Assembly (NCBI GenBank): GCA_963712695.1
Contig: CAVQJD010000007.1
Location: 3,221 to 67,220 of the forward strand
Origin: an uncultured Gammaproteobacteria bacterium
GTDB taxonomy: Bacteria; Pseudomonadota; Gammaproteobacteria; UBA9214
Length of the DNA: 64,000 nt
Reading direction: 5' to 3'
A model generated the notes under the pieces. It saw only the letters and a list, made by a program, of their open reading frames with translations. It searched no databases and was not told the origin of the DNA. Position numbers and translations under genes: made by a program. Below are positions 2,877 to 40,108 of the stretch, one piece after another. Positions within the stretch are counted from its first letter, which is position 1. Each line of letters starts with the position of its first letter.

Positions 2877-4243
2877 ATGAAACGGTTGCGAGATTACGGT
2901 TCTTATCAAGTGCTCTACTGCTCAGCCTGACACACGCCGGGCAGGCCGCCTGCCCGGGCGACGGTGCAAGACCGATGAATATCGGGCCACACAACCCGCA
3001 GACCACGTTCCCGCTGTGGGTGCAGGACTCGGAGGGACTGGGGTTGGAAATCTGCCCGGGCACCGATCAGCTCAACTGCATTTCGGTGCCGCCGTTTAAC
3101 CCGATCGACGATCCTGGTTTAAGTCAGGCTCAGTATGACCTGTCAGCGCAGATCGGCTCCGGTGACGAGGCCTTCTATGCGTCTGCCGACGCGCTCATCA
3201 CTATTCCGGCCGGAAAGGCGATCCTGGTATCGGCCGTCGAGGCAGCCTTCCTGCCCGATTTCCAGGACGGCAACCAGTTTGCCTTCACCCGCCTGCGCAT
3301 CCGCATCGACCTGCCGAACGCAGGTACCTACATCGTGAAGCACCCTTGGGGCGAGATCACCTACAACATCTCACCCGCTGAGGTAGCCAATGGCATCAAC
3401 GATTCCTTCGACATCCCGTTCCTGGCCGACCAGGTGGGCTACCAGGGTCGCCTCGGCCCGATTCTGACCTGGAGCACCTACCCCGATGACGTTCTGCTCG
3501 ACCAGTACGGAACCTCCGGCCCCCCCAGCGCACCGGATGGCATTCCTGACTACATCGGCACGCTCGTGGTTGACCATGCTGTAAAAGGCAGCCCGTGTGG
3601 CACCAACTTTTTCCGTATAGAAGGACCGAATATCGGCGGACCCAACGTCAATTCCGTCCAGACCAACCTGTTCACCGTCACCGGCAAGGTATATAACGGC
3701 GCGGCACTGCCGACACCCCTGGCCGTCGACCAGGCGACCTACAGCCGCGCCACGGTTGGAACTGTGAATGTCGGACGTGTGAATGTCTTTGCCACCGCAC
3801 CGACGATCGCGGATGTCAGCTTCACCGGAGGCGCAAACATACCGGCCGGAACACAGCTCATGGCCTCCGACGGCAGCAACCGCCATTTTGGCACGGTGGC
3901 ACTCACACCGAACGGCGATACAGTGCCGTCCAGCGTTGATGTGACCGCCAACAATAACGTAATCCCCGTCAACCTGCCGACCACGCTCACCAACATACCA
4001 CTGGTCGACCTGGTCACGGTCACCCGCGCGGAATACGACTTTGCGACCGGTGTCCTCACTATCGAGGCGCACTCGAGCGACCTGGTCGCACCACCGACGC
4101 TGTCCGCGCTCGGCCAGAACCTGACCAATGGCGTGCTGACCACGACTCTGAATCCGGGCGTTGCCCCGCCGACGGTCACCGTGACCTCGCTCGCGGGTGG
4201 TTCGGCCACGCTTCCCGTCACCATCATTCACGCTGTGCCCTGA
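2877..4243 (+). CDS. Secreted protein, short member of an unrecognised paralog family (here called family A). An apparent 1-nt frameshift sits in the signal peptide.
   Basis: The main ORF is 2975..4243. ATG 2877 with an upstream AT-rich RBS region gives MKRLR, then a different frame gives FLSSALLLSLTHAGQAACPGDG, a signal peptide that continues into ORF 2975. Shared with ORFs 4264, 20105 and 21500: C-P-x-D after the signal, FTRLRIRxDxP, GSPCGTNFFRIE, LVDLVTVTRAEYD, TLTxEAxSSD and VTVTS-AGGS. Confidence 0.6.
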
Positions 4244-4263: not shown

Positions 4264-6063
4264 ATGAGCTACAAAATACAAATTACTCTGGTCGCCGCCC
4301 TGCTGGGCCTGGTCATGGGTTCAACGGCCCAGGCGGTCTGTTCCGTGCCCGGCAATCACGCCACGCCGATTATTGTCGGCCCGCCGAACCCCAACAACGG
4401 CTTCGCGGAATACGTAACGGAAACACTGCCCCCGGCCGGAACTGATCCAGGTCTTTCGCTGGAGTTGTGTCTGGATCCGGCGTTCTGCTTCTTCGACCCA
4501 CCCGATCCGGCCTTTGTCTACTCGACCCAGATCGGCTTCGGCTTCGAGGCCTTCTGGTGGCTGGCCCAGCCCGACACCACGAACTTCCCCCCCGCACAAG
4601 ACTCCATCGCCCTCGGCGGGGACGGTACTGGAGTTGGTGCTGTCCTGGTACTGGGCGCCGAGGCGGCGTTCCTCGGAGACATTTTCGATGGCGGCCAGTT
4701 CCCGTTCACCCGCCTGCGCATCCGGGTGGATGTGAACACGCCAGGTTTCTACCGCATCACCGAACCCTACGGCATACATGTTTACGAGGTCATTAACGTT
4801 GGTGCCGGTAACGAGATCAGCGACAGCTTCGATGTCGAGTTTACCCAGGGCACGATCGATGCCGGTGTCGTGACCGAGGCCACCAACTCGACCAATTGCG
4901 TCGGTCCCTGGCTGACCTGGGATCCGGCCGTGCCACCGCTGGCTCCGCCCGGCTTCATCGGTGACGGTGCCACCCCGCACGAGATCACCGGCAGTCCCAC
5001 CGGCACCAACTTCTTCCGCATCGAGGCCTTCAGTGACGCGGCGCAGGTCGTTCATTTGGACACCCTCGATCCGCTTGACGCGGACGGCGACGGACAAAAC
5101 ACCGTGCAGACCAACCTGTTTACCGTAACCGGCAAGCTCTATGACGGCCGCCTGGCCACGCCCATGGTCGCCGAGCGCGCCACCTACACGCGCGCAAGTG
5201 GTGCCCCATCCGTCGGGCAAGTGGATGTCTTCGCCCGCGGGGCCGGCACGGCAGCGGTCGACTTCACCGGCGGTCCCAATGTGAATGGAACCTTCCCCCT
5301 GCTGGGTAACCTGGGCGGCTTCTTCGACAGCGAACAGCTGATTGACGCGACGGTGTTACCACCCGTGGTGGACATCGACGCGACGGATACTCCAACGGAT
5401 CTCACCCACCTGGTGCAACCGCTGGTGGACCTGGTGACCATCACCCGGGCGGAATACAACATCAGTGTCGGCACGCTGACGGTGGAGGCAAGCTCGAGCG
5501 ATACCCTGGCTCCGCCCACCCTGAGGCTCATCGATCCGGTCCAGATCCTGACCGCCGGCAGTGTCGAGGTGACGCTGTCAGCAACCGGCGCACCGCTGGC
5601 GCCGCCCGGTGTGGTCACCGTGAGTTCGTCGGCGGGTGGGTCCGCCACCCGGCTGGTTGAGGTCATTTCCGACGACCAGGACGGTGACGGTGTACTGGAT
5701 GCGGTGGACAACTGCCCCGTCACCTTCAATCCGGGACAGGCGGATGGCGAGAACGACGGCACGGGCGATGCCTGCGACAACTGCACGCTGGTGGCGAACG
5801 GGCCCAATACCTACCCGCCGGGTGATCCACGCATCCAATATGATAGCAACGGGGACGGTTATGGCAACCGATGCGATGCAGACTTCAACGACGACAACAT
5901 AGTCGATGTACTCGACATCCCGCTGTTTAGAGCAGCCTTTGGCACGTCAGCACCCAATGAAGATCTCAATGGTGACACCATAGTGGATGTACTCGATGTG
6001 CCGATTTTGAGAGCACTTTTTGGCCTGCCGCCGGGGCCCTCCTGCTGCGGGCCGCTGCCCTAA
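4264..6063 (+). CDS. Secreted family-A paralog, long form with a C-terminal TSP3 plus double dockerin-like module.
   Basis: The signal peptide is MSYKIQITLVAALLGLVMGSTAQA. The family-A conserved core includes FPFTRLRIRVDV, GSPTGTNFFRIEAF and LVDLVTITRAEYN. The C-terminus is DNCPVTFNPGQADGENDGTGDACDNC...CDADFNDDNIVDVLDIPLFRAAFG...DLNGDTIVDVLDVPILRALFGLPPGPSCCGPLP. Confidence 0.65.
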   Translation: MSYKIQITLVAALLGLVMGSTAQAVCSVPGNHATPIIVGPPNPNNGFAEYVTETLPPAGTDPGLSLELCLDPAFCFFDPPDPAFVYSTQIGFGFEAFWWLAQPDTTNFPPAQDSIALGGDGTGVGAVLVLGAEAAFLGDIFDGGQFPFTRLRIRVDVNTPGFYRITEPYGIHVYEVINVGAGNEISDSFDVEFTQGTIDAGVVTEATNSTNCVGPWLTWDPAVPPLAPPGFIGDGATPHEITGSPTGTNFFRIEAFSDAAQVVHLDTLDPLDADGDGQNTVQTNLFTVTGKLYDGRLATPMVAERATYTRASGAPSVGQVDVFARGAGTAAVDFTGGPNVNGTFPLLGNLGGFFDSEQLIDATVLPPVVDIDATDTPTDLTHLVQPLVDLVTITRAEYNISVGTLTVEASSSDTLAPPTLRLIDPVQILTAGSVEVTLSATGAPLAPPGVVTVSSSAGGSATRLVEVISDDQDGDGVLDAVDNCPVTFNPGQADGENDGTGDACDNCTLVANGPNTYPPGDPRIQYDSNGDGYGNRCDADFNDDNIVDVLDIPLFRAAFGTSAPNEDLNGDTIVDVLDVPILRALFGLPPGPSCCGPLP

Positions 6064-6293: not shown

Positions 6294-9397
<3,104 letters not shown>

Positions 9398-9741
9398 CGA
9401 TTGGCCAGCACAGCGTGGGTGCAGGTTGATGGACAAGCCTGCACCCGCGCGGGAGTGACTGCAGTATCCTGATAAACAGAGCACCGTGGTGCAGCGCAAA
9501 GAGAGGGCGACTGCACCACGGGGACCGGTCAAAGGCTGTCAGTGGCAATAGGGCCACCGACAGCGCAGGTGGTAACGGCACTGACCCGCAGGGTGCGCTG
9601 TCACGGTACACCGGAAATCAGGGGTGAACCGCCCTGTAAATCCGCAAATGGCCAGTCTTGTATATTGAACCCAGACGACAATCGAAAGTCTTTATGATGA
9701 ACCCGGACAATCTGAACTGAGTCGTTATCGGAAACGTGTAA

Positions 9742-10845
9742 ATGAGGCTGCTTATGAGATGCATCCGTATCATCGCAGGGGCCCGGGGCGCTATCGCCGC
9801 CGCTGTCCTGCTCTTCACCACCCTGTCACTGCTGGGCGCTCATACTGCCTGCGCGGCGCCGCAGTTTCCCAATGTCCCCCTGATAAACCAGGACGGCGAG
9901 ACGTTGTACTTCTACGATGACGTCATCAAGGGCAAGGTGGTGACCATCAATTTCATGTTCACCAGCTGCGGCGACTCCTGTCCGATGGAAACCGCCAAGC
10001 TGCGCAAGGTCCAGGAATTGCTCGGCGAACACGCCGGCAAGGACGTCCACATGTATTCCATCACCGTCGACCCCGACCGCGACACCCCGGCGGCACTCAA
10101 GGCGTACATGCAGAAATTCAAGGTCGGCCCCGGCTGGCAGTTCCTGACGGGAAAGAAAGCAGACATCGATCAGGTACGCAAACGCCTGGGCATGTACAGT
10201 GAAGCAGCGGATGAGCTCAGCGATCACGGCGTCAACTTCGTCCTGGGCAATGAGGCGACCGGAAAGTGGTTAAGACGTACGCCCTTTGATCTACCCGAGA
10301 CACTGGTATACGTGCTGCTGGGCCGCCTGCAACAGTACCGGCTGGTTTCAGATGCGGCTGCAGCGCTACCGAGCTACGCCCAGAGCCATGCCATGCCAGC
10401 TGCCCGCCCGGGCGAGGATCTGTTCAATACGCGTTGCACGGCCTGCCATACCATCGGCGAGGGCGACAGGCTGGGCCCGGATCTGCTGGGTGTCGTCAGT
10501 AAACGCGACCGTCAATGGCTGATTCGCTGGCTGCAGGAACCCGATGTGATGCTGAAGGAAAAAGATCCCCTGGCAACGGCACTCTACATCCAGTATGGCA
10601 AGGTACCGATGCCGAATGTGAAGCTGACTGACAAGAATGCGCTTGACCTGATCAAGTACATGCAGGCGGAAACCCGGCGTGTGAACGCACTAAACGGGGG
10701 TACGCCCGCGCAGACAGACAACCTGGAAAGCATCGTAGCGACAGAACCGGCGGTCCAGACGGGCGGGACAACACCGCCTCCGGGCACCGATACCCCGCAG
10801 GATCAGGCACGGGCAGATGCACCACCGATAAAACAGGTTCAGTAA
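9742..10845 (+). CDS. SCO1/SenC-family copper chaperone with a thioredoxin fold, fused to a C-terminal mono-haem cytochrome c domain.
   Basis: Signal peptide, then the Sco motif FTSCGDSCP, with DPDRDTP and GWQFLTG as in the Sco1 family. The C-terminal part carries a CTACH haem-binding site and c-type cytochrome-like spacing (GPDLLGV...MP). Confidence 0.7.
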   Translation: MRLLMRCIRIIAGARGAIAAAVLLFTTLSLLGAHTACAAPQFPNVPLINQDGETLYFYDDVIKGKVVTINFMFTSCGDSCPMETAKLRKVQELLGEHAGKDVHMYSITVDPDRDTPAALKAYMQKFKVGPGWQFLTGKKADIDQVRKRLGMYSEAADELSDHGVNFVLGNEATGKWLRRTPFDLPETLVYVLLGRLQQYRLVSDAAAALPSYAQSHAMPAARPGEDLFNTRCTACHTIGEGDRLGPDLLGVVSKRDRQWLIRWLQEPDVMLKEKDPLATALYIQYGKVPMPNVKLTDKNALDLIKYMQAETRRVNALNGGTPAQTDNLESIVATEPAVQTGGTTPPPGTDTPQDQARADAPPIKQVQ

Positions 10846-10889
10846 AAGGGCAAGATATTAAGAGGCTCATTAAACGGGAACACAATAAT

Positions 10890-11654
10890 ATGAAAAACCG
10901 CTCACACCATGCGAGATTAATCGCGTCCGTTTTCGCCATGTTTGGCCTGCTATGCCTGTTCCCACCCGGCACGGCCCGGGCGATCGGCGTCGGCCAGATC
11001 GATACCTTCAGTGACGGCTCATTACAGGACTGGATGATGGGTATAGCCGCGGTCACGACCAGCCATATGACAAACATCGCCGCTGGCGGACCCGCCGGGG
11101 CCGGCGACAACTTCCTGCAGGTGGTCGCGGACGGGCCGCCCCCTCCGGGAACCTCCGGTCAGGGCAGTCGGATGACCTTCTTCAACCAGCTCCAGTGGAC
11201 GGGTGATTACACCGCCGCAGGGGTCACCGCGATTGCCATGGACCTGAAAAATATGAGCGTCAGTGAAACCCTGTATCTGCGGCTCGCGATCGATGGTGGT
11301 ACTGGTCCCAGCTTTAACAGGACGGGGGGCGTGTTTGCCACCGCGGCGAGTATCAGCCTGGACCCCGGCAGCGACTGGACACGGGTCGTGTTCTCATTGC
11401 TGCCCGCCGATCTGATCTCCGTCAGTAGCATTGGCGGCCACGCCACGGGCAACAATGTCGAGGCTACACTGGCCAACGTGACGGAATTGCGGCTACTGAA
11501 CAGTGCAACCCCCGACTGGAACGGGCTACAGGTTGTTGGCACCCTGGGTATCGACAACATCCAGGCGGTACCGCTACCGCCGGCTTTTGCACTGTTCGCT
11601 TCGGGACTCGTTGTACTCGTGACAAGACGGCGCAAACAAACCCTTCAGGCATGA
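10890..11654 (+). CDS. PEP-CTERM (VPLPA-CTERM variant) sorting-domain protein, a putative exosortase substrate.
   Basis: N-terminal signal peptide. The C-terminus is VPLPPAFALFASGLVVLVTRRRKQ, that is VPLP, a transmembrane helix and a basic cluster. Confidence 0.65.
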   Translation: MKNRSHHARLIASVFAMFGLLCLFPPGTARAIGVGQIDTFSDGSLQDWMMGIAAVTTSHMTNIAAGGPAGAGDNFLQVVADGPPPPGTSGQGSRMTFFNQLQWTGDYTAAGVTAIAMDLKNMSVSETLYLRLAIDGGTGPSFNRTGGVFATAASISLDPGSDWTRVVFSLLPADLISVSSIGGHATGNNVEATLANVTELRLLNSATPDWNGLQVVGTLGIDNIQAVPLPPAFALFASGLVVLVTRRRKQTLQA

Positions 11655-11755
11655 AGGGCAGCTGATCCTTTGCCAGTGGTATTGTTACAACTCGCATTTC
11701 ATTGCAATTTGAGCATGCATTGTCTGACGAATCATAGAAACCAGGGACCGGAAAA

Positions 11756-12274
11756 ATGAAATTTCACGCTGGGTTATTTATCTCAACAATAGTATTACTG
11801 TCTGCTTTCCCTGTGTGCTTCGCTCACGACAATCCGGGGGCAACAGAGGCTGCCATTGATAGCCCGGAAATTCAGAAACCGGCCGACTCCCCGGCTACAG
11901 GTAATAGCCCGGAGATTCAGAAACCGGCCGAAGCCGAAGCCGCTACTGACAATCCGATGACTCAGAAACCGGCCGAAGCCACGACTGCAGGCGATAGCCC
12001 CGAGATTCAGAAACCGGGCGAAGCCGAGGCAATGGAAGCGGCAATGCGGTACGTTAACCCGGATGGACAATTGACCATAAAAAATTCGGAGTTACTTGCA
12101 TGGGGCACGTTCAATGAAAAGCAAGTCTACTGGCCAATCAAATTTCGCGTGACCTATATATCAAAGGGATCTGATAAGCCAAGGCAGAATGAATATGCTG
12201 TGAAGATTGCCAAAGACAGCAACGGTCAATGGGTAGCCACACAGTATTGGGCATGGAGAACCGACTTCAAATAA
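11756..12274 (+). CDS. Secreted protein with four tandem SPEIQKP(A/G)EAEA-type repeats. The gene has lower GC than its neighbours.
   Basis: ORF with signal peptide MKFHAGLFISTIVLLSAFPVCFA. It has 4 copies of a (D/N)SPEIQKPA(E/D) repeat of about 16 aa. Codon usage and GC are visibly lower than in flanking genes. Confidence 0.5.
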   Translation: MKFHAGLFISTIVLLSAFPVCFAHDNPGATEAAIDSPEIQKPADSPATGNSPEIQKPAEAEAATDNPMTQKPAEATTAGDSPEIQKPGEAEAMEAAMRYVNPDGQLTIKNSELLAWGTFNEKQVYWPIKFRVTYISKGSDKPRQNEYAVKIAKDSNGQWVATQYWAWRTDFK

Positions 12275-12562
12275 ATACACGAGGCTGATCTTTGCAAGGC
12301 AACTCCTGAAAAATCTCCGCAGCCGCGGCCCCCCGCTAACAACAATCCATCACAGGATCTGGCCAATGTAGAGGAATTGCGGCTGTTGAACAGCGCAACC
12401 CCCGATTGGAAAGGGCTCCCGGTCACCGCCACCACTCTCGGTATCGACAACATCCAGACGGTACCGCTGCCGCCGTCCCTGGCGCTGTTCGGCTCGGGAC
12501 TGCTTGCGCTGTGGACACAACGGCGCAGACAAGCGCGGCGCAGACTTCCGCCGGGGGCATGA
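12275..12562 (+). pseudogene. Orphan 3' fragment that duplicates the PEP-CTERM tail of gene 10890..11654. It has no N-terminus.
   Basis: The frame is open from 12275 with no ATG. It encodes ANVEELRLLNSATPDWKGLPVTATTLGIDNIQTVPLPPSLALFGSGLLALWTQRRRQ. This is a near-copy of the last ~60 aa of the upstream PEP-CTERM protein (ANVTELRLLNSATPDWNGLQVVGTLGIDNIQAVPLPPAFALFASGLVVLVTRRRKQ). Confidence 0.45.
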
Positions 12563-13205
12563 GTTACAGCGGCATAGGTAAATTCCGAATAAAATTTTGG
12601 TCAGGCACAGGTCTCTAGATAATTGATCTGTGACTGTTTTCAGTCAAATTGTCGTAATTTCTTACGCTTCTTGCAGAGCCTCCAATACAGCATTTTTTCT
12701 TAACTATCTGTTTGTATAGATATTTATCAAAAATAGTGTTAAAAGCTGTCCACTGCGTTGTTCAAATAGTTTACAGCCAGACTGCTCTGGATACTCCCCA
12801 ACACCTCGTCAATTTCTATGCTTTTGATTTATAAGCTTTCTTAATTTTTCTTAAGCTTTTGGCCTGATAATTGCCTTTATATTCATACAGAAGTGCTGTC
12901 AAGCAACTCCAGGCAGTGCAAACAAAATAATAACGACGACCCAGACGACGACGAATCTCATCAGAAAGCATCGCTGGTTTCAGGGGATAACAATGCGGAA
13001 ATTTACACAGGAGCGTCATCCCAGCCGCCGGAGAGACTGCCTGATCCCGCTTGTCTTCTTCTGGCACCCGCATAACCGAATTCCCGCTCGCCAGATGCAG
13101 GAGGGTTTTTTTCTGCCGGCGTGCTGCCCGCCTGCACCCCGAGCCGGATTCCATACCGAATACCTGTTACTCAAAACACCTCAAAACACGCGAGGAGGAC
13201 ACCCC

Positions 13206-16200
13206 ATGTCCACATCATACCCCCAGAATGACAGCACCCTGCAGCGGACACTTCGCACACCTGTGCCCTCTGGTCACCAGCTGCTGACACTTGGCCTGGC
13301 CTCAACCGCCCAGGCAGCGGTCACCTGTGAGCGTGACATTACGGCCAACGTCGTGGCACTCGACCAGCCGATTCTGTTCAATCGCCTGGGTGCCTCCAAC
13401 GTCAACGCGGCGATCTTCGCACTGGAACGCGACGTGGTGGATGCCAACGGTGTGCCGCTCAGCACTCGGCGGCGCTCGCGATCCCGGGACTGGTGCAGCT
13501 GCGTACCGACAAGCGCCCCCGCCCGCTGGTGTTGCGGGTACGCCGTGGCGACTGCCTGACGGTCAACCTGACCAATCTGCTGTCACCGGTGGCCAATCCG
13601 ATCAAGCCGCTGGTCGAAGGCGGTGACCCGCTGCCGAACAATGACCAGTTCAACGTGCCCATCGACGAACAGGTGTTCGACCGCCACGTGAGCTTCCACG
13701 TCTCCGGCATGCAGCTGGTGGATTCCATCGCTGACGACGGGTCCTATGTCGGCCAGAACCCGTCGAGCATCGCCGCCCAGGGCAACTCTGCATCCTACCG
13801 GCTCTACGCCGAGCGCGAAGGCGCCTTCCACGTGACCAGCCTCGGCTCGGTCGTGGGCTCCGACGGCAACGAGGGCAACACCTCCAATCTGCTGTTCGGC
13901 CAGGTGAGCGTCGAGCCGACCGGCGGCGAACATCTACCGCAGCCAGGTGACCGAAGAGGAGATGCGTCTGGTCTCCATGGACCTGGTCTCCACCTCGCCC
14001 ACCTGCGGCGCGCGCAACCTCAACGCGGCCAGCCAGCCGGTCATCGACTACGAGGCGCGCTACCCGACCGTGAACTGCGATGGCATCAACAACAGCGGGG
14101 CCGACCTGGGCGCGGCCGTGTGGATCGCCGAGGGCAAGGCGGGATTGCCCGTGCTCAATATGATCGACAACGACCAGATCGTGCAGTCCGAGATTCATGC
14201 CATGATCGTCGGCCCGAACGCCGACGGCAGCTTCCCGCCCAGCACCTATCCGCTGGAGAGCGTGGGCAAGCGCAACCCCAACCTGCCGAACCGCCTGACG
14301 CCGTTCCGTGAATTCGCCTCGGTGTTTCACGACGAGAGTGCCGCCGCCCAGGCGTTCCCGGGCTTCTTTGTCGACTGACCCGGTCTTCAACGTGGTGCTG
14401 GCCGGCGTCAAGGATGCCTTCATGATCAACTACGGCTCGGGCGGCATCGGCAGCGAAATCATCGCCAACCGCCTGCGGGTCGGACCCATGCACGACTGCC
14501 TCACCTGCGCCTTCGAGGAATTCTTCCTGACCTCCTTCACGGTGGGCGATCCGGCGCAGCTGGTTGATGTATCCGCCAATATCGGCCTCGAGGCCCTGCT
14601 GCCCGGACAGACCCCGGCACCAGGCACCACCGGCCCCAAGGCTACCTTCGTACCCTACCCCGAGGATCCGGCCAACATCCACCACAGCTACACGGGTGAC
14701 TTCGTCAAGATCCGCAACAGCCACACGGTAAGGAACAGCACGTCTTCCACCTGCACAACCACCAGTGGCTGTACAACCCCAACGACGACAACTCGAACTA
14801 CCTGGACGCGCAGGGCATCGGACCGGGTATCGGCTATACCTACGAGATCAACTTCGGCGGTTCGGGCAACCGCCCCAAGAGTTCCGGTGACGCCATCTTC
14901 CACTGCCACTTCTACCCGCATTTCGCCCAGGGCATGTGGTATCACTGGCGCAACCACGACGTGCTCGAAACCGGCACCCTGCTCGAGGCCAGCGGCAGCC
15001 CTGACAGCTTCCATGCCACGCCCTGGGCGCTGGGCAACGGCACCCCGATGCTGGCATCCGTCGCCGGGCTGACCGAGGCCGCACCCGGTGCGCGCGTACG
15101 CGCGCTGCCCGACGCCGAAGTGGTGGTCGGCGCCCCTATCCCGGCCATCGTACCGCTGCCCGGCAAGGCCATGCCGCCGCTGCCTGGCGAAGTACAGCTG
15201 GTGCCCAACCCGCTCACCACGACGGCGTCGATTTTCAATCCGACCCCGCCTGCCGCCGATCTCGACCCGCTCGCGCCGGGCATCCAGGTGCCGGTCGGCA
15301 GTCTGGCCAGCGTCGTGGATCGCGCCACCAACCCCGGTTATCCGTTCTGGATCGCCGGCATTGAAGACGTTGTCGGCCAGCGTCCACCCACCCCGCCGCT
15401 CGACATGGTCTCGGCTGCCCAGGTGGCGGCACTCAACGACGCGGCCTGCCAGGCCGACCCGAACTGCCTGTGGCAGAATCTGGATCCGGCCCAGGCCGAT
15501 GGCTGGGACGGCGGCCTGCCGCGCGCGGCCCTGCAGGGATTCGCGGCCGGTGGCGACACCGAACTCAATATCGTTTCGCGCCTCGATTTCACCAAAACGG
15601 TGGGTGAGGCGAAGGCGGTGTTCTATCCCCGAGGAAGGCACCGACCTCGAACAGCTCGCCATGCGCTTCCATGCCATTCGCAATCACCCCAGCTGCCTGC
15701 CGGATGGCACCTGTGATCCGACCATCGATCCCGGCAGCACTACGGCGGTGAACTTCGTGTCGAACGGCAATCTGCCCGCGGTCGGCGCGCCCTTCCACGA
15801 GCCGTGCATGGACGACCGGGGTGTGCGTCTCGAGACCGGTGTGCAGGGCAACTTCTTCGGCAGCACGCTGACGGCAATGAACGACCCGGCGGGCATGACC
15901 ACGGTCGGCTCGAGCGTCTTCACTGCCAACAACCCGCGCATCTACAAAGGCGCCAACATGCAGTACGACGTGGTGCTGAACAAGGCCGGCTACCACTACC
16001 CGCAGCAGCGCATCATTGCCCTGTGGGAGGACGTGGTGCCGGTGATCAGCAAGACCAAGCCCGACGAACCGCTGGTGATGCGCTTCAACACCTTCGACTG
16101 TGGCGTCTATCACCACACCAACCTGGTGCCTGAATACTACGAGCTCGACGATTATCAGGTGCGCACCCCGACCGACATCATCGGTCAGCACATCCACCTG

Positions 16201-19200
16201 CCCAAGTGGGATCTGACCACCGCCGACGGCGCCGCCAACGGCTGGAACTATGAGGACGGCACACTGTCGCCCGGTTCGGTGCGCGAGCGCATCCGCGCGC
16301 TGAACTGTTTCGCCACCGGCGACAGCGGCGACCCCGCCCACCCCTGCCCGCCCGGGATTCCGCGGCGGCATCGGCAGCCACGTTGCGGGCACCGGCTCCG
16401 GCGGATTGATCCCGCCCACGACCCTGACACCCGAGGCACACCCCTACTGGGCCGGTCAGGCGGCGGCACTGGGCGGCCCCTTCCCCGAGCTCTGGGACGG
16501 TGCCCGGGTCACCACCCAGCGCTGGTTCTTCGACCCGGTGGTCAACACCGAAGGGGTCGACCGGGGACTGGGCATCATCTTCACCCACGACCACTACGGC
16601 CCTTCGACCCACCAGCAGATCGGCCTGTATGCGACCGTGCTGGCCGAGCCGGCCGGTTCGCGCTGGGTGCACAACGAGACCGGCGTGCAGCTGGGCCGCG
16701 GCCCCGATGGTCTCAACCCCAGCGGCCGCATCGATGGCGGTCCGACCTCCTGGCAGGCGGTGATCCTGCCGCCGGGTGGCGGCTCGACCGTGAATCCGCC
16801 CGGCCAGCTGGAGCAGTTCCGGGAGTTCTACTTCGAGTACACCGACTTCCAGCACGCCTACGAGGCCGGCGTCTACGTGGGTGCCGACCAGCAGGGCGCA
16901 CCGATCGGCGGGCCGGTCGGCAACGATCCGGGGTTGACCGGACATCCTCAATACCGGCAATGCCGATTTCACCGGCCTGCCCGAAGATGCGTTCCGCTTC
17001 GCCATCAACCCGCCGAATCGCGAACAGGTCACACCCGTGTTCCCCGACCTGGTGCTGGAGGCGGCCGCAGGGCCTGTTGCCGGGTTGCCCCTTCAACCCG
17101 CTCACCGGCGAGGGCGGACGTCCCTGTCCGACCGCCATCGACGTACAGGACCCGGGTATGTTCTCGGTCAACTACCGCAACGAACCCGTTGCCCTGCGCG
17201 TCTTTGACCCGTTTGCGCTGGGCCCGGACGGCCAGCCGGGCGCCCAGAGTGATGCACGCGCCGGCGATCTCGCCCTCGCGTTCGAGACACGCAATGACCG
17301 TCGCCTGTTCGTGGAAGGCGCCAGTTTCGGCAGCATCGACGGCAACCCGATCCCCGGCTTTGTCCTGAACGAGGTACCGGTAGCGGGTGACCACATCAAC
17401 GGCACCGTCTTCCCGCCGCACATCAACGCCGGTGGCGTCAATGGCGGCGATCCCTTCACCCCGATGATGCGCGCCTTCGCCGGTGACCTGATCCGGGTGA
17501 AGATGCAGGCCGGCGGCGACGAGGAAGAACACGCCGCCACCATCCACGGCGTGAAATGGCTGTACGCCGGTTCCGGCCACGGCGAGGCCCGCAACTCGGG
17601 CTGGCGTGGCAGCCAGTCGGGCGGCATTTCCGAGCAGTTCACCCTCAAGGTACCGCTGGTACCGCTGAAGGGTAATGTCGGGCGCCGTCTCGACTACCTC
17701 TACACCATGGACGCCTCCACCGACGGTTGCTGGAGCGGCATGTGGGGCATCCTGCGTGCCTACGAAAACCGCACCCAGGCCACGGACCCGGCCCAGGGCG
17801 GCGGTCCGCTGGTCGAGTTGACCAACAATCCCCCGCCGCAGACGGGGCTGGTGCAGATCACCAACGAGGCCGATTTCGACGGCGCCTGTCCGCTGTTCAT
17901 GCCCGATGGCGTGACCCCGACCACGGTCCGCGCGTATGACATTACCGTGGTACTGGCCAACGACGTGCTGCCCGTCAACCCCGACGTGATCATCACGGAT
18001 GTCGACCCGGCGGGTCACGTAGGTGCGGCACCGGATCCTCTCGGCGGCACGCTGGTCTACAACCCGCGCACCGACCAGATCGGTGGTGGCGTACTGGTAG
18101 AACCCGGCCATCCGCCGGTGCCGTTGCCGATCCACAACGGCCCGATTCACGATCCGACCGCGATCCTGTATGTCCATACCTCGGATGTCGTCACGGATCG
18201 TACTCGGCAATCCCATCGGCCTCAAGCCGAACACCCCGGTCGAACCGCTGGTGCTGCGTGCCGCCGCGGGCGACTGCATCAGGGTCACGCTGCGCAACGA
18301 ACTGCCGGTGCTGATGCCGGAGCTGCCGACCTATACCAGCCTGCTCGGCGCCAACAAGCGCGACCGGCTGGGCGTCGAGGGTTCGACCACCTTCCAGACC
18401 AACCTGCTGGCTGCCGTCCAATCGCGTCGGACTGCACCCGCAGATGCTGGCCTACGATGTGTCGCGCGCCGACGGCACGGTGGTGGGCGAGAACCACACC
18501 CTGGCGCAGGTCATCGGTCCCAACAGCGCCCCGGCCACGTTCGAGTGGTACGCCGGCGATCTCGGCTTTACCCGCGACGGCGCGGGTCAGTGGACGCTGA
18601 CCGCGACGCCGGTGGAGTTCGGGGTGTCGAACCTGGCACCGGCGGACAAGATCAAGCACGGCATGAAGTCGGCGGTCGGCCAGCTGATCGTCGAGCCGCT
18701 GGGTTCCAGCTGGATCGAGGACGGCGTCAATGAGAATCCGAGCGGTGCCCGTGGCCGACCCGCTGCGCTTTGCCTATGCACCCGGTGCGACCCGGCTCGA
18801 GGCCTCGGTCATCAAGGACGGCGCCCGCATCTTCCGCGACCTGTCGGTGGTCCTGACCAAGCAGCAGACCCAGTACTATGCGGACAGCGAGCCGGTCGAA
18901 CACCTGAACGGTGAAGGTGCAGGCATCCCCGAGGATCCGCAGGAAGCCACGGGCATGGCGATCAACTACCAGATCGATCCGCTCTGGTTCCGGCTCGGCA
19001 TCCTGCCGAATTCGCCCTTCGGCAACGACATCACACCGTCGAGCTTCGGCAATGCGGTGCCACCGAATGCGGACGGGACCCAGTTCGACATCTACAGCAA
19101 CAACCGGCCGCATCCGCCCGGCAGCCCGCTGGTCGGTCCCATCGGTGAGCCGTCCACGCCGGTGTTCCTGGCACGGCCCGGTGAACCCCTGCGCGTGCGT

Positions 19201-19848
19201 CTCGGCGTACCGCACGGCACCAACCGCGGGTCCACCTTCAGCCTGCACGGCCACACCTGGCAGCGCGACCCCTATATCTGCCCGAACGATGCGCGCAACG
19301 GCCTGATTGGCGCCTGTCTGCCGACCAGTGTCGGTTCGCAGGCCATCGGACACAATCCGCAGGGCTTCTACCAGGGTGCGCAGGAGAGCATCTGGTCCAC
19401 CGCGCACTACGATTTCGTGCTGGCGAGCGCGGGCGGTGCGGGTGAGATCCTGGGTGATTACCTGTTCCGCGACACCGCTTCCTTCGGTAATGCCTCCGGG
19501 CTGTGGGGTATCCTCCGGGTCGAGAACCGACCGGATGCCGATGGCGACGGTATCTTCGATGATGTGGACAACTGCATCAACGTGGCCAATGGTCCGCTGA
19601 TCCCGGATGCCGGCGGCTTCAGCCAGCGGGATACCAACGGGGATGGGTTCGGTAACGTCTGCGATGCGGATTTCAATGGCGACGGCGTGGTCGATGCCTT
19701 CGATATTCCCGCGTTCAGAGGGGCGTTTGGCTCGGCACTGGCACCGGATCAGGATCTGAATGGTGACGGTATCGTCGATGCATTCGATATCCCGCTGTTC
19801 AGGGCATCCTTTGGACAACCACCCGGCCTGTCGTGCTGTGGAATTTAG
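13206..19848 (+). pseudogene. Giant (~2200 aa) multi-domain multicopper oxidase of the MnxG/MofA/MoxA type with a C-terminal TSP3 plus double dockerin-like module. The frame is broken about 10-12 times.
   Basis: ATG 13206 follows a GAGGAGG RBS, and the signal region is LLTLGLASTAQAAV. A continuous homologous reading runs through ORFs 12993, 13493, 13947, 14308, 14934, 15088, 16406, 15088 again, 18170, 18444 and 18730. Copper-site motifs: HVFHLHNHQW, IFHCHFYPHFAQGMW (HCHxxxHxxxGM), FTHDHYGPSTH, HIHLPKW and FSLHGHTWQRDP. Paired GMWGILRAYE and GLWGILRVE motifs also occur. The C-terminus is DNCINVANGP...RDTNGDGFGNVCDADFNGDGVVDAFDIPAFRGAFG...DLNGDGIVDAFDIPLFRASFGQPPGLSCCGI. Confidence 0.6.
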
Positions 19849-19915: not shown

Positions 19916-20104
19916 CGGGGAAAGGAACCCGGGTGACCGGTCAGACCACCCGCGACCCGATGACACTACGCTGCAGGGGGAAAGGCGGTCATCGCGCAAT
20001 GCCCAGGGGGGCAACTGAAATTGCGAACACGGGGGTGGCGAGGTCCCCGCCCAATGAAAAAGGAAACCAGCGCAAGACAGGTTGAAAAACCGGGAGACAA
20101 GACA

Positions 20105-23794: not shown

Positions 23795-25774
23795 GTGTAC
23801 GCCAGCTCTACAAACTGCCGCCTATGGTGGCCTTTCCTCCTGCTGTTACCCTTATTCCTGGCACTGATCACCGTCGGCCGCACCGCGGAGCCAGAGCCGG
23901 TCGGAGCCCGACTACGGGCCGCCTGGTCAGACACGGCATCGTGGTCGATTTCGAGGCACTGCCGCTCGCAGGCAACGATCAGGGCCTCATGGAAGGGCAA
24001 CTGGCCGAGATCCGCTTCCGACTCACCGAGGAAGCGACCGGCGCACCGGTCCGGGGTATTACGCCCGGCGCCTGGATGGACATGGGTGAAGTCATCCAGG
24101 GCCAGTCGGGGGCCGAGCAGAAAACCTGCAAGGAAAAGATCGCGCTCTATCTCAAGGGTGTGGTCGGCATCCGCCCCATGATCGACCTCAACAGCTACTA
24201 TGTACTGATCCTCAACAAGGAACCGAGTATCTCCGTCGTTGATCCGCTGGTATCGATGGTGGGCAAGACCAGCACCCTGGCGAATATCCGTCTCGAGGCC
24301 GCGGGGGCCGACTGGGCCAGCAGCGCGGACGAAAAGCGTGTCTTCGTGAGCATGCCCAAGGCCGGCAAGGTGGCACTGCTGGATACCAGCAAGTTCAAGG
24401 TGACCGACAACATCCCGGCCGGCAGTGCACCGACCCGGGTGGCCCTGCAACCCGATGGACGCTATCTCTGGGTCGGTAACAACGCGCCAACCGCGGATGC
24501 CAGCGGGGTCACCGTTATCGACACTGGCACGCTGGAATCCCTGGCCACCTTACCCACCGGGGCCGGACATCACGAGATCGCCTTCACCGCCGACAGCCGT
24601 TATGCCTTCGTGAGCAATCGCGATGCCGGCACGGTCAGTGTCATCGACGTCCAGTCACGCACCGTGCTGAAGAACATCGAGACCGGCCCGCTGCCCATTT
24701 CGCTCGCCTATTCAGCGCTGTCCCGGGCGCTGTACGTCGCCGACGGCAAGGACGGCCACATCAGCGTGATCGACACCGAGCAGTTCAAGGTGCAAAAACG
24801 GATCGAGGCCAGTCCCGGGCTGGGACCGTTGCGTTTCGCACCGGACGGCCGCTATGCCGTGGTGGTCAACCCCAGCCAGGAAACGGTCTACGTAATCGAC
24901 GCGGCGGCCAACGAAATCGTGCACCGCATCGCCGTGACCGGGCAGCCCTACCAGGTCGTGTTCAGCCGTGCCTTTGCCTACGTGCGCCCGCTTGCCAGCC
25001 AGAGCATCTCCATGATCGACCTGAAGCAGTCTCGGGGCGGGCAAGCAGCCGATCGTGAAAAGCTTCGAGGCAGGCAGCGTAGCACCCAGCCTGGCCGGTG
25101 ACCTGTCGCTGGCCGACTCGCTGGCCGCGACCAGCAGCGAGGCAGCCATGTTCATCGTCAACCCGGGAGACAACACCACCTATGTCTACATGGAAGGCAT
25201 GAACGCACCGTCCAGCAACTACTCGGTGCGCGGTGCCAGCGCGCGCGGCGTGATGGTCGTTGATCGCAGTCTGCACGAAATCGAGCCGGGGTTGTTTTCC
25301 GCCAAGGTGAAGCTTCCCGCCCCCGGCCGCTACGATGTGGCGTTCCTGCTGGATACGCCACAGATCCTGCATTGTTTTTCGGCAGAAGCACAGCCCGATC
25401 CCCGGATTGATCATGCCACCACGCCACTGACCATCGAATACCTGCTGCAAGACCGGCGCATGCATCTCGACACCCCGGCGCCACTACGCTTCCGGCTCGT
25501 CGATCCGCATACCGGCCAGCCCATGACCGGGTTGAAGGACGTGGGCGTGCGCTACTTCCGGGTACCCGGCACTGACCGCAAGGAGATGCGTGCCAGTGAG
25601 GAAGGTGACGGCGTGTACCGGGCCGATCTGGCACTGTCGCATCCGGGTGCCTATTACGTGCACGTGGGTGTGCCCTCCGTGGGCATCGCCTACCAGGATC
25701 TGCCCTACTTCACCCTGGTCGCCGTCCAGACCGCGGCCGGTGCACAACGCACGCCACAGGAGACATCGCCATGA
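23795..25774 (+). CDS. Secreted YVTN-type beta-propeller repeat protein with two apparent frameshifts.
   Basis: ORF 23795 has the signal peptide WPFLLLLPLFLALITVG. ORF 23824-25101 has repeated about 40-aa YVTN-like blades (RYLWVGNN..., RYAFVSNRDAGTVSVID, ALYVADGKDGHISVID, RYAVVVNPSQETVYVID). The tail continues in ORF 25055-25774. Confidence 0.5.
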
Positions 25775-26739
25775 ACCTGCGCCTGACTGGCGCCCTCTGC
25801 GCCCTCGTCCTGGGATTCGGCCCGTTGCCGGGTGTACTGGCCGATGCCTTCGGCCTGGCGGCCCGGGTCAACGGCATGGAGATCTCCAGCGAAAAGCTCG
25901 AGAAGAGCTTTGAGGAATACCTGCGCGAGAACAACGTGAACGTGGGCGCCATTCGCTATCCCGATCGATACAAGGCCATGAAGCGGGAGACGCTCGACTT
26001 GCTTATCGACCAGCTACTGCTGTGGCAGGCGGCTCAGGACAGCGACATGGTAGCGACACCTGCAGAAGTCAGCGCCGCGTTCGATGACATGCGTGCCCAG
26101 TTCAAGTCGGCGGAGAACTTTCGCGACCGGCTCGCTGCCGAAGGTTACAGTGAGGACAGTTACCGGGAACACCTCAAGCAGCTGGTCTCGGCCAGCAAGT
26201 ACCTGGAGAGCCTGAGCGGCGACATCGGAGTGAGCGATACGGAAGTACACGACTTCTATACCCGGAACCCGGATAAATTCCAGGTGCCCGAAGTCGTCCG
26301 GGCGCGCCACATCCTGATCAAGCTGGATGCCTCGCACTCCGATGAGGAGCAGCGCGGCAGGCGCAAGCAGATCGAGGACATCCTGGCACAGGCACGCGCG
26401 GGTGCCGACTTCGCCCGGCTCGCCAGCGAGCATTCAGAAGATACCAGCGCCGCCCAGGGCGGTGACCTCGGCTACTTTCCGCGCGGGAGAATGGTAAAAC
26501 CGTTCGAGGACGCCGCGTTCGGTTTGCAGCCGGGCGAGCTGTCCGGGGTAGTGGAAACCCCGTTCGGCCTGCACATCATCAAGCTGGAGGAGCGTCACGC
26601 GCCAACGATACTGCCCGAAGCCGATGCCCGCGAACGGATTACCGGGTATCTCACGGCGCTGAAGCGTGAACAGGCCGTATCCACCGGCATGGAAACGCTG
26701 CGTTCCAGCGCCAAAATTGAAATACTGGTACCGTTATGA
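25771..26739 (+). CDS. Parvulin-type peptidyl-prolyl cis-trans isomerase, a SurA/PpiD/PrsA-like periplasmic chaperone.
   Basis: Signal peptide and a chaperone-like N-domain. The parvulin domain contains ARHILIK, GGDLGYFPRGRMVKPFEDAAF and GVVETPFGLHIIK. The start overlaps the upstream stop by 4 nt. Confidence 0.7.
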   Translation: MNLRLTGALCALVLGFGPLPGVLADAFGLAARVNGMEISSEKLEKSFEEYLRENNVNVGAIRYPDRYKAMKRETLDLLIDQLLLWQAAQDSDMVATPAEVSAAFDDMRAQFKSAENFRDRLAAEGYSEDSYREHLKQLVSASKYLESLSGDIGVSDTEVHDFYTRNPDKFQVPEVVRARHILIKLDASHSDEEQRGRRKQIEDILAQARAGADFARLASEHSEDTSAAQGGDLGYFPRGRMVKPFEDAAFGLQPGELSGVVETPFGLHIIKLEERHAPTILPEADARERITGYLTALKREQAVSTGMETLRSSAKIEILVPL

Positions 26740-28097
26740 AACACCCTGCCGCACGGAGCGTAACCGGATTGCCGAAGCCCTGCTTGCACCCTGCGCACCT
26801 GCCGGTCGCGCTGCTGATGCTGGTCCTGCTGGCGCCAGCGGCCGTGCAGGCGGCTGAGGAGCACCACCATCATCTGCACCCCGAGCCGGTTTCCGCCGCT
26901 GACCCGCACGCGCACCACCGGGCCATGCTCGAGCAGGCACAGCCGGGGCCTGCCACCGCCACCGATGTCACACTGCACAATGCGACGCTGCTGACCCAGA
27001 ACGGCACGCAGGTGCGGTTCGCCAGCGAGGTCATCGCTGACCGCATCGTGGTAATGGACTTCGTCTACACCACCTGTACCACCGTGTGCCCGGTGCTGTC
27101 CGCGGTCTTCGGCCAGGTGCAGGAACGTCTGGGCGACCGGCTCGGACAGGAGGTGTCGCTGGTATCAGTCAGTGTTGACCCCGTTCGCGACACACCGCCA
27201 CGACTCAAGGCCTACGCCGACCGGCACCGCGCACAGGATGGCTGGATCTGGCTCACCGGGGATAAATCGCAGGTGGACCAGGTGCTGACCGGGCTTGGTG
27301 CCTACGCGCCGCGTTTCGAGGACCATCCGGCCATGGTCCTGGTGGGCGATGGACGTTCCGGGACCTGGATCCGTTTCTTCGGCTTCCCGGGCACGGACCA
27401 GATCCTGGCTGCGGTGGATGAACTCTCGGCGGCCCGGCAGGCGTGCCGCCCAACACCTGCAGGAGTAATGCACCATGCGCACGTTTTTCAGCTTGTTTCT
27501 CACTTTCGCCCTGGCCTGGCTAGCGCCTGCCGTGTCCGCAGCACCACGCAGACGACGGGCGGCGCGGCGGCGACACCCGCTGCGCCAACCCAGGCCGACG
27601 CTGACGAGGCCTCGCGTCAGTACTTCACGGACCTGAAGCTGGTCACCCAGGACGGCAAGGATGTGCGCTTCTTCAGCGATGTCCTGCAAGACAGGATCGT
27701 GCTCATCAATTTCATCTTCACCCACTGTGAGGGTGCCTGCCCGCTGATGACCCGCAAGCTCAAATCGAGCCGTGACCTGCTCGACGCACCATTGCGTGCC
27801 AGGGTGCATTTCGTCTCCATCAGCATCGACCCGGAACGTGACACGCCGGCGGCGATGAAGGCATTTGCCACCCAACACGAACTCGCCGACGACAAGAACT
27901 GGCTGTTTCTCACCGGTGATCCGCAAAACGTGAACCAGATCGTCAGGAAGCTCGGCCAGTACACGCCGGACGTCGAGGAGCACTCGACACTGGTGCTGGC
28001 CGGCAATGTCAGGGATCACTACTGGATGAAGATCTCGCCCATGGTGCCGGCGGAGGGTATCGCGGACAAGCTGCGCCTGCTGGCACAGGAGCAGTGA
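26736..28097 (+). CDS. Tandem double SCO1/SenC copper-chaperone protein with a His-rich N-terminal segment.
   Basis: The His-rich stretch is EEHHHHLHPEPVSAADPHAHH. Two Sco-type thioredoxin-fold domains carry CTTVCP...DPVRDTP...GWIWLTG and HCEGACP...DPERDTP...NWLFLTG. It overlaps the upstream gene end, so it sits in the same operon. Confidence 0.7.
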   Translation: MKHPAARSVTGLPKPCLHPAHLPVALLMLVLLAPAAVQAAEEHHHHLHPEPVSAADPHAHHRAMLEQAQPGPATATDVTLHNATLLTQNGTQVRFASEVIADRIVVMDFVYTTCTTVCPVLSAVFGQVQERLGDRLGQEVSLVSVSVDPVRDTPPRLKAYADRHRAQDGWIWLTGDKSQVDQVLTGLGAYAPRFEDHPAMVLVGDGRSGTWIRFFGFPGTDQILAAVDELSAARQACRPTPAGVMHHAHVFQLVSHFRPGLASACRVRSTTQTTGGAAATPAAPTQADADEASRQYFTDLKLVTQDGKDVRFFSDVLQDRIVLINFIFTHCEGACPLMTRKLKSSRDLLDAPLRARVHFVSISIDPERDTPAAMKAFATQHELADDKNWLFLTGDPQNVNQIVRKLGQYTPDVEEHSTLVLAGNVRDHYWMKISPMVPAEGIADKLRLLAQEQ

Positions 28098-29738
28098 GGC
28101 GCATCATCACGGCCAGGCGCCGGACGCGTCCCTGGTCAACGGCTGCGCTGGCCCTGTTGCTCGCCGGCACTGTCGCGGCCACCCCACTCTCGCCCCAGGA
28201 ACAGCGCGGCAAGCAGATCTATATCCACGGCACCAGCGCCGCCGGCACGGCTATCACCGCGCACGTGGGCACGCAGGCGGTTGCATTGCCCGCGAGCGCG
28301 ATACCCTGCGCCAGCTGCCATGGCCCCGACGGACGCGGTCGCCCCGAAGGCGGCGTGAACCCGACCGACATCACCTGGCAGAACCTCACCAAACACTATG
28401 GCCACCGGCACGACTTCGGCCGCCAGCACCCGGCTTTCGACACGGCTTCACTGGCGGCCGCAATCACCCGGGGGATTGATCCGGCCGGCAACCGGCTGGA
28501 TGCGGCCATGCCACTCTACAGCATGGAACCGGACGACCTGGCTGCCCTGATCGCCTATCTGAAGTGCATCGAGACCGACAGCGACCGCGGCCTCTCTGCA
28601 ACAAACATCCGACTGGCCACGCAGCTGCCCCTGTCGGGTCGTCTGGCTGGACTGGGCGAGGCCATGCGTGCGGTCATGCTGGCCTATTTCGCGGAGCTCA
28701 ACGCGGCCGGTGGCATCCACGGCCGCCACCTCGAACTCGTGGTCATCCCGTTCGGCGACTCGCCGCGCACGGCGCTGACCAATCTCGAGCAGGGCCTGGC
28801 CGAACAGGAAATCTTCGCCCTGGTCGGCAGCTACAGCGTAGGCCTGGAAGACGAGACGGCACGGCTGATGGAACAGCAAGCAGCTACCCCTGGTCGGTCC
28901 CTTCACCCTGCAGCCGCAGTCCGGCGAGGGCCTGGACCGCCACACCTTCTATCTGTATCCCGGGCAGGAACAACGGGTGCGGGTACTGGTCGATGTCGCG
29001 GGCGACAGGAAGTCAGCGCGGGCGCCCCGCCTCGCCGTTGCAGGCCCCGACACGCCCACCCTCGCCAGGCTTGGCCAGGTGATCACAGAGCAGGCACGCC
29101 GTCACGGCTGGGACACGGTACAGACTTTCGCTTATCCGCCCGGCCAGCTGGTCCCGGCGCAGCTGGCCGCGGCACTGCAGGATGCAGGGCGTACCGCGCT
29201 GTTTTTCTTCGGCACCAGCGACGAGCTGAATGCCTTGCTCGTCACCCTGGGTGAATCAGACCAGCCACCGGCGGTTTATCTGCTCTCAAGCCTGGCGACG
29301 CCTGCCCTGCTCACCGCCCCGGCGGTGTTCGACCAGCGGATCTTTATTGCCTACCCGACGCTGCCGCGTGACGTAACAGCGCGCGGCCAGCAGGACTACA
29401 ACGCACTCAGGCAGAAATACGATCTGCCCGAGGCACACGTCTCGGGACAGATCGCCGCCTACGCCGCCGCCAGAACGCTCGTGGAAGGCCTGAAACGCGC
29501 CGGCAGGGATCTGAGCAGGCAAGGGCTGGTCAGTGCACTGGAAGGCCTGTACCGTTTCGACACCGGACTCACCCCGCCGCTGACCTACAATGCGAATCGT
29601 CGCATCGGGGCACTGGGTGCCCATGTGGTCGCAGTGCAGCTCGCAGCCGGGGGCTACGCTCCCGGTGGGCGCGTGGCAACCGCTCGATTAGCCGTGCAGG
29701 TGCAGCGCACAACTCCGCTGGTGAGATATACGGGCTAA
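28094..29738 (+). CDS. Cytochrome c domain fused to a LivK-like type-I periplasmic binding protein (branched-chain amino acid binding-protein fold). One apparent frameshift near 28900-29000.
   Basis: The N-terminus has a signal peptide and CASCH haem-binding site with c-type context. PBP-like sequence then follows (LSGRLAGLGEAMRAVMLAYFAELNAAGGIHGRHLELVVIPFGD...) and continues in ORF 28977-29738 (LSSLATPALLTAPAVFDQRIFIAYPTLPRD...). Confidence 0.55.
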
Positions 29739-32616: not shown

Positions 32617-32639
32617 CCTGAAACGTCTTGTTATAGTTA

Positions 32640-40103: not shown

Positions 40104-40108
40104 TCAGC

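Follow-up and report, generated by a model that had tools for sequence, protein, structure and literature searches.

A PP3183-type Sco–cytochrome c fusion gene beside an McoA-type multicopper oxidase gene in an uncultured gammaproteobacterium

Fusions of a Sco domain to a c-type cytochrome have a described representative in PP3183 of Pseudomonas putida, which was reportedly characterised by Banci and colleagues in 2011. The Sco domain of that protein is said not to bind Cu(II), and to bind Cu(I) weakly and without the histidine. It is reportedly active as a thioredoxin, and is said to reduce Cu(II) to Cu(I) and, in the attached cytochrome domain, the Fe(III) haem. Here, we describe a related gene at positions 9742–10845 of a 64,000-nucleotide (nt) stretch of contig CAVQJD010000007.1 from an uncultured gammaproteobacterium (hereafter the window), together with the multicopper oxidase (MCO) genes that surround it.

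In P. putida GB-1, the MCOs McoA and MnxG are described as Mn(II) oxidases (PMC11409713, PMC3056050), and the SCO1/SenC gene directly after mcoA has been termed a predicted copper chaperone (PMC11409713). The order mnxS1 – mcoA – SCO1/SenC – mnxS2 – mnxR has been published for Mn(II) oxidisers that resemble P. psychrophila (PMC11409713). The window is a metal-oxidase island that holds both an mcoA–Sco-cytochrome c pair and an mnxG-type operon. Hence, two gene sets of Mn(II)-oxidising Pseudomonas co-occur in an uncultured gammaproteobacterial lineage of soil or sediment. The Sco–cytochrome c gene itself is a further member of the PP3183-type fusion family, in its usual place. Taken alone it adds little, since the family is structurally characterised and its position beside an McoA-type oxidase gene is the customary one.

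Domains, ligand residues and family of the fusion

A preliminary description of this DNA, made from its letters and open reading frames (ORFs), had proposed that a Sco domain is fused here to a mono-haem cytochrome c domain with the motif CTACH. Pfam, a sequence search of the PDB, a fold search and the invariance of the likely ligands all confirm this. Residues 47–168 match PF02630 (SCO1-SenC) with an E-value of 3.3e-25 and a score of 89 bits (cutoff 22.8), and residues 223–308 match PF00034 (Cytochrom_C) with an E-value of 9.5e-7 and a score of 30.5 bits (cutoff 21.3). The PDB entry 2l4d, “SCO1/SenC family protein/cytochrome c”, matches residues 223–315 with an E-value of 1.3e-27. An AlphaFold 2 (AF2) model of the protein has a mean predicted local distance difference test score (pLDDT) of 67, with values of 80–96 in the Sco core and ~80–89 in the cytochrome domain. 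The top 25 PDB matches of this model in Foldseek are all Sco structures, with target TM-scores of ~0.61–0.75; 2l4d, named as the “cytochrome c domain of pp3183” from Pseudomonas putida, was also found (47% identity, target TM-score 0.67).

The residues expected to act in each domain are present (Table 1). H162 aligns with the histidine of “IHGTSFYL” in 4hde, a Sco structure from Bacillus anthracis. In an alignment of 30 homologues that are 57–84% identical to the query (alignment A1), C76, D78, C80, P81, H162, C232, C235, H236 and M290 are invariant. Because the CxxCH motif is invariant, we take it to be a true haem site that has been conserved, rather than a match by chance. The two findings that the preliminary description named as fatal to its proposal were the lack of a Sco fold and a chance CxxCH; the fold is confirmed and the motif is conserved throughout. 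Binding of copper by the Cys2His set of the Sco domain and covalent attachment of haem to C232 and C235 are putative. Translation probably begins at ATG 9754: the homologues start there, and a GAGG stands 6 nt upstream. The protein is predicted to be extracytoplasmic from its N-terminal signal peptide with an AxA site, and the AF2 model has a hydrophobic helix at residues 12–33. Judged from its sequence, the gene has every defining feature that we tested for Sco proteins, class-I cytochromes c and PP3183-type fusions, the sole exception being the association with cox genes that is typical of CuA chaperones.

The family is large and widespread. A homologue search in a collection of 5.8 billion proteins gave 570 matches; PF02630 is recorded in all of the best 120, most of these also have a recorded cytochrome c match, and in the closest the colinear match spans ~99% of the query. 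A lookup by exact sequence returned no record for the window protein. When one genome per GTDB species was scanned, 256 stretches were found to encode a relative. Many are from Pseudomonas (putida, fluorescens, psychrophila, resinovorans and others), and the remainder include Gallionella, Sideroxyarcus, Nitrosomonas and Usitatibacter, as well as metagenome-assembled genomes (MAGs) of myxococcal, acidobacterial and planctomycete origin. The closest relatives, with 66–84% identity, are from MAGs of uncultured Gammaproteobacteria from the Microflora Danica project. The architecture had been called unusual, a view that cannot be upheld: it recurs in the best 120 homologues and has relatives in the 256 species genomes, and PDB entry 2L4D is the cytochrome domain of PP3183, which is the same fusion.

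Could the fusion be an assembly artefact, in which separate sco and cytochrome c genes were joined by an indel? The window does carry many frameshifts, with many of its genes split between frames relative to intact orthologues, yet its Sco–cytochrome c gene is unbroken. The best 120 homologues, which come from many independent assemblies and from isolate genomes, share the same single-ORF architecture in an unbroken alignment; moreover, the PDB entry is named as a fusion, and the linker between the domains is conserved (R195, Y212, G224). We consider an artefactual origin to be effectively refuted.

The McoA-type neighbour and a proposed role

We compared the best 80 loci, of which 76 had enough upstream sequence to be usable, by means of a probe that consisted of the copper-oxidase core of an intact orthologue (MCO core only, without the thrombospondin type-3, or TSP3, repeats). 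An McoA-type MCO gene lies directly upstream of the fusion gene, on the same strand, in 67 of the 76 loci, and slightly further upstream in 2 more. In most loci this partner is a single ORF of 930–1150 amino acids (aa). The suggestion that the Sco genes of this region adjoin MCO genes thus stands, although the MCO genes of the window are frameshifted. In P. psychrophila (locus L074), a histidine kinase gene is followed in turn by those for an MCO (942 aa, Cu-oxidase_2), the Sco–cytochrome c fusion, another histidine kinase and a sigma-54 response regulator, which is exactly the published mnxS1 – mcoA – SCO1/SenC – mnxS2 – mnxR order (PMC11409713). The synteny in 67 of 76 loci is a firm basis for asking whether these Sco and cytochrome proteins mature Mn/multicopper oxidases.

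This neighbourhood bears on the possibility that the gene encodes a canonical Sco/SenC factor, which would supply copper to the CuA or cbb3 haem-copper oxidases while its cytochrome domain docks to the respiratory chain. The intact CxxxCP motif and histidine are consistent with such a role, as is the fact that the closest solved folds are CuA chaperones, and a review cites the work on P. putida in connection with the metallation of oxidases (PMC3817396). However, haem-copper oxidase (cox) genes were not found anywhere in the 64-kb window, and the recurrent neighbour is an MCO gene. The P. putida homologue, moreover, reportedly does not bind Cu(II). We therefore regard a canonical role as highly improbable.

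What might the protein do beside an McoA-type oxidase? It is likely, in our view, to be a PP3183-type, Sec-exported periplasmic partner of that oxidase, which would act as a reductant and as a transient handler of Cu(I). An MCO requires four copper ions and carries out the reduction of O2 on its own. By eye, the N-termini of McoA proteins look Sec-type rather than Tat-type, so McoA would be exported unfolded and free of metal. After export, the Ccm system would attach haem to C232 and C235 of the fusion protein. Its Sco dithiol would then serve as reductant and transient Cu(I) handler, converting Cu(II) to Cu(I) and helping to fill the four copper sites of McoA, and the tethered haem would trade single electrons with the cysteine pair and so set or reset its thiol/disulfide state. 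By analogy, what is said of the P. putida protein favours a redox relay over a classical, tight-binding chaperone, with copper delivery as a putative step. A periplasmic copper or redox route dedicated to MCOs, as the preliminary description had it, is plausible and has already been suggested in the literature.

Genetic data from Pseudomonas bear on this picture indirectly. Mn oxidation there requires both ccm genes and a thiol-disulfide isomerase of TlpA-like type (PMC11409713, PMC13631088), and TlpA-type thioredoxins are described as reductants of Sco proteins (Abicht et al. 2014, as cited in PMC11409713). These requirements would fit accessory proteins that depend on c-type haem and on Sco. 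A wider proposal, which we put forward tentatively, is that the operon-encoded Sco and c-haem proteins (the Sco–cytochrome c fusion beside mcoA, and two Sco proteins and a cytochrome c–periplasmic binding protein beside mnxG) explain the need for ccm and TlpA-like functions, and form a dedicated periplasmic, Cu(II)-reducing copper-loading system on which the activation of Sec-exported giant MCOs depends. If true, such a system would be widespread and would reach lineages of iron and ammonia oxidisers (Gallionella, Sideroxyarcus, Nitrosomonas).

An alternative function for the protein is as an electron carrier between the MCO/Mn(II)-oxidation system and the respiratory chain, in which the Sco disulfide would be a second redox centre and the purpose would be energy conservation rather than copper loading. 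The mnxG-type operon contains a second cytochrome c fusion, and the P. putida homologue reportedly transfers electrons from thiol to haem within the molecule. MCOs, on the other hand, hand their electrons to O2 at their own trinuclear centre, with no external acceptor. The requirement of Mn oxidation for c-type cytochrome biogenesis, for which a respiratory link has been proposed (PMC13631088), would suit a carrier, but no membrane partner is encoded in the window, and the Cys/His triad of the Sco domain is strictly conserved, which speaks for chemistry of metals or thiols. Hence, we consider a carrier function to be unlikely.

Several observations weigh against a role as partner of McoA. Frameshifts break the mcoA gene of the window and make its function here uncertain, and the gap between it and the fusion gene is 345 nt. 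A scan of 9300–12400 gave no promoter-like sites, and terminator-like sites at chance level; by eye, no convincing sigma-54 promoter was seen in the 345-nt gap. The closest MAG has a second copy of the Sco–cytochrome c gene with no McoA core upstream (8001–9104 of locus L005, on the contig of L001 and L003). It lies ~12 kb downstream of the first copy and its product is 81% identical to the window protein; the window has one copy. In the literature, we found no experiment that links any Sco–cytochrome c gene to the activity or copper content of McoA, and no deletion of an mcoA-adjacent Sco gene. Lastly, five Pseudomonas species (L056, L065, L066, L077 and L081; match at 8001–8930) keep the fusion between kinase genes that resemble mnxS1 and mnxS2, and lack an mcoA gene in the vicinity. 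The fusion may have an McoA-independent role in these species, or mcoA may have been lost recently.

The arrangement in these five species, and the position of the gene between two kinase genes in many Pseudomonas, would also be expected if the protein were a periplasmic accessory of the MnxS1/MnxS2/MnxR two-component system that senses redox state or copper, and not a maturation factor. Outside Pseudomonas, however, the window and its closest relatives included, the gene is not flanked by such kinases, whereas the MCO neighbour persists, and an MnxR-like regulator is encoded in just 23 of the 80 loci. A sensory role is thus very unlikely, and the reading of the fusion protein as a redox and Cu(I)-handling partner of McoA is the one that we prefer.

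The mnxG-type operon and other features of the window

The region at ~13.2–29.7 kb encodes, in order, an MnxG-like oxidase, two secreted paralogues, a propeller/YtkA protein, a SurA-like protein, the Sco ORF and a cytochrome c–Peripla_BP_6 fusion (Table 1). In two metagenomic loci (L084/L085), which have the gene order of the window, MnxG (2087 aa) is followed in turn by the propeller (659 aa), SurA (336 aa), two Sco proteins (of 277 and then 205 aa) and a cytochrome c/periplasmic binding protein (PBP; 526 aa). By sequence, the stretch at 23.8–29.7 kb matches the published mnxG operon. Directly after the operon, L084/L085 carry a GspD secretin gene (11077–13296), a place taken in the window by a gene for a sulfotransferase, which runs on the opposite strand. 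The secretin gene recalls the Gsp-related secretion pathway reported for a Mn-oxidising factor of Pseudomonas.

The ORF at 26736–28097 had been presented as a tandem double-Sco protein with a His-rich N-terminus. It does contain two Sco stretches (Pfam, E 2.7e-41), with the motifs C-TTV-C-P and C-EGA-C-P, each with a downstream histidine, and the DPHAHHRAM of its His-rich N-terminus is conserved in homologues. That it is a single protein is doubtful. At the junction between the two stretches, frame 1 has a stop codon at 27466–27468 and, six bases on, an ATG at 27475 that encodes a signal peptide, MRTFFSLFLTFALAWLAPAVSA. These are the positions expected for the end of the first gene and the start of the second from L084, which has two separate Sco genes, the second encoding 205 aa with its own signal peptide; L085 likewise has two genes. 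Furthermore, the closest relatives of the first Sco domain (65–66% identity) are single-domain proteins. On this sequence evidence, the ORF probably represents two adjacent genes merged by two indels within ~100 nt.

Frameshifts of this kind are common in the window. Split genes occupy 6294–9397, 13206–19848, ~25027, ~28886, 34352–36698, 40137–43269, 47503–48625 and 52107–53925. The mcoA-like gene is split by ~4 frameshifts (near 7147, ~7940, ~8241 and 8908, by tblastn), and the mnxG-like gene runs through frames 3, 1, 2, 1, 2, 3 and 1, with at least 6 frame changes (tblastn). Also split are a CopA-like MCO gene (34.3–36.7 kb), cusA (40.1–43.3 kb), a second resistance-nodulation-division (RND) pump gene and probably a DEAD-box helicase gene, the last judged from two overlapping ORFs in different frames. 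Because genes of a housekeeping type are hit too, assembly indels are more likely than pseudogenes as the cause. Selective pseudogenisation of the MCO genes was considered and rejected as the preferred reading, since the frameshifts also break CusA, the RND pump, the CopA-like MCO, the propeller, the cytochrome c–PBP fusion and probably the DEAD-box helicase. Homopolymer density does not differ between broken and intact genes; several of the frame junctions sit at short C runs (CCC/CCCC). Soils and sediments sequenced deeply by Nanopore yielded the MAGs of the nearest relatives (PMC12313526), and long-read data may be the source of the indels. Sequence error is the most likely origin of both the double Sco and the broken MCO genes of the window, and neither should be read as a biological feature.

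In the window, the fusion gene is followed by that for a PEP-CTERM-type secreted protein, which is probably co-transcribed with it and which 16 related loci also have downstream of the fusion; its product has no Pfam match. A truncated, paralogous PEP-CTERM-like tail is present at 12377–12562 (region 12197–12562).

At least six secreted proteins encoded in the window have in common C-terminal TSP3 repeats and a dockerin-like “DADFNxDxxVDxxDIPxFR” (2414–2659, 5671–6054, 9038–9394, 19534–19833, 22922–23443 and 33916–34182). The carriers are a cytochrome c peroxidase (CCP)/MauG-like protein, two paralogues, McoA, MnxG and the protein upstream of the third MCO, which hints at a common calcium-dependent system for anchoring or assembling the oxidase set. 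The CCP/MauG-like protein (44–2680), a di-haem protein with TSP3 repeats, heads the cluster and has the same position in the closest MAG (L001). Four secreted proteins (2975–4243, 4264–6063, 20021–21466 and 21500–23482) are paralogous and mutually 38–47% identical; two are encoded upstream of mcoA and two after mnxG. Those at 20021 and 21500 have a conserved N-terminal CPVDGATPFTAGPV in common. Apart from the TSP3 tails, Pfam finds nothing in the four, and the sequence of 20021–21466 had no match in the PDB.

Copper-handling genes fill 33700–45066: a third, CopA/CueO-like MCO (Cu-oxidase_3, Cu-oxidase_2), three FKBP-type peptidyl-prolyl isomerases (PPIases) with FKBP_N, CusB with two HMBD domains, and CusA. 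The G+C fraction is ~0.49–0.50 at 32001–34000 and at 62001–64000, whereas most of the window is at ~0.6 or above (range 0.54–0.68).

Table 1. Positions of the fusion gene, its parts and neighbouring genes in the window
Feature	Position	Strand	Basis
Sco–cytochrome c fusion gene	9742..10845	+	Intact ORF, 367 aa; PF02630 and PF00034
Predicted Sec-type signal peptide	9742..9855	+	aa 1–38, A36-C-A38 / A39, from the translation; predicted cleavage
Sco (thioredoxin-fold) domain	9868..10341	+	aa ~43–200; Pfam aa 47–168, Foldseek, conservation to ~aa 200
Sco active-site motif C76-G-D-S-C80-P81 (FTSC76GDSC80P)	9967..9984	+	Read from the sequence
H162, equivalent of the Sco copper-ligand histidine	10225..10227	+	82 residues past C80
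Class-I cytochrome c domain	10399..10686	+	aa ~220–315; PF00034, 2l4d, Foldseek
Haem attachment motif C232-T-A-C235-H236	10435..10449	+	Read from the sequence
M290 in invariant M-P-N, probable distal haem ligand	10609..10611	+	Aligned with MPN of 2l4d; putative role
McoA-type MCO gene with C-terminal TSP3/dockerin-like module	6294..9397	+	Cu-oxidase_2 and TSP_3 matches; tblastn with intact orthologues
PEP-CTERM-type secreted protein	10890..11654	+	45 nt downstream of Sco–cytochrome c gene; C-terminal VPLPPAFALFASGLVVLVTRRRK (PEP-CTERM-like sorting tail, VPLP…RRRK)
MnxG-type giant MCO gene	13206..19848	+	tblastn with 2087-aa L084 protein; copper-site motifs such as FTHDHYGPSTHQQIGL
Beta-propeller (YNCE/Cytochrom_D1-like) and YtkA-like protein	23824..25774	+	Pfam; one gene, frameshift near 25027 (frames 1 to 2); 659-aa single gene in L084
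SurA-like periplasmic PPIase/chaperone	25771..26739	+	Rotamase_3, SurA_N_3 (Pfam); operon position as in L084
sco1 (His-rich N-terminus, C-TTV-C-P)	26736..27468	+	Probable end TAA 27466–27468 after 3-to-1 frame change; 65% identical to 277-aa L084 Sco
sco2 (C-EGA-C-P)	27475..28097	+	Probable start ATG 27475, signal peptide MRTFFSLFLTFALAWLAPAVSA in frame 1, then back to frame 3
Cytochrome c (CASCH) and Peripla_BP_6 fusion	28094..29738	+	Pfam; frameshift near 28886 (frames 2 to 3); 526-aa single gene in L084

Comparison with known systems

PP3183 of P. putida KT2440 (PDB 2L4D) has the same two domains as the window protein in the same order, with the same CxxxCP/His and CxxCH/MPN residues, and its cytochrome domain is 47% identical. 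The window protein differs in a low-complexity C-terminal tail of ~50 residues that it has in common with its close relatives only (alignment A1). Its Pseudomonas orthologues are 43–52% identical in the best tblastn segment and are syntenic with mcoA. In the window, the gene is followed by that for a PEP-CTERM protein and not by regulatory genes as in the Pseudomonas members, and McoA has an extra TSP3/dockerin-like C-terminal module relative to the Pseudomonas mcoA product. We regard these differences as details of the lineage. The SCO1/SenC gene of P. putida GB-1 (IMG 641547787; PMC11409713) occupies the same position after an McoA-type oxidase gene, and its counterpart in L074 carries the fusion. 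The mcoA-adjacent gene is listed in that study as SCO1/SenC without discussion of a cytochrome c domain (PMC11409713).

Canonical Sco proteins, such as those of B. subtilis (1XZO/1ON4), B. japonicum (ScoI, 4WBJ/4TXO) and human (SCO1, 2GGT), have in common with the window protein the thioredoxin fold, the CxxxC motif, a histidine ~82 residues further on and an extracytoplasmic location. In contrast, they are single-domain and cox-associated, bind Cu(II) tightly, and are ~20–30% identical to the window protein, whose context is an MCO gene. Genuine tandem double-Sco proteins also exist (the “SCO family protein” of Cystobacter fuscus, P0124, and the betaproteobacterial P0135); they are 45–49% identical to the ORF at 26736–28097 over 83–86% of the query with both Sco domains aligned, but their inter-domain linkers have 10–30 residues, as compared with ~60 in the window ORF.

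The closest match to the second locus is the P. putida GB-1 mnxG operon, which comprises mnxG, a YVTN propeller, two SCO1/SenC genes, a substrate-binding protein with a cytochrome c domain, and SurA (PMC11409713, PMC8218464). Two extra secreted paralogues lie between mnxG and the propeller in the window, where many of the genes are frameshifted. The window at 13.2–29.7 kb nonetheless has the same gene content, as given in Table 4 of PMC11409713, in the order propeller – SurA – Sco – Sco – cytochrome c/PBP, as in L084.

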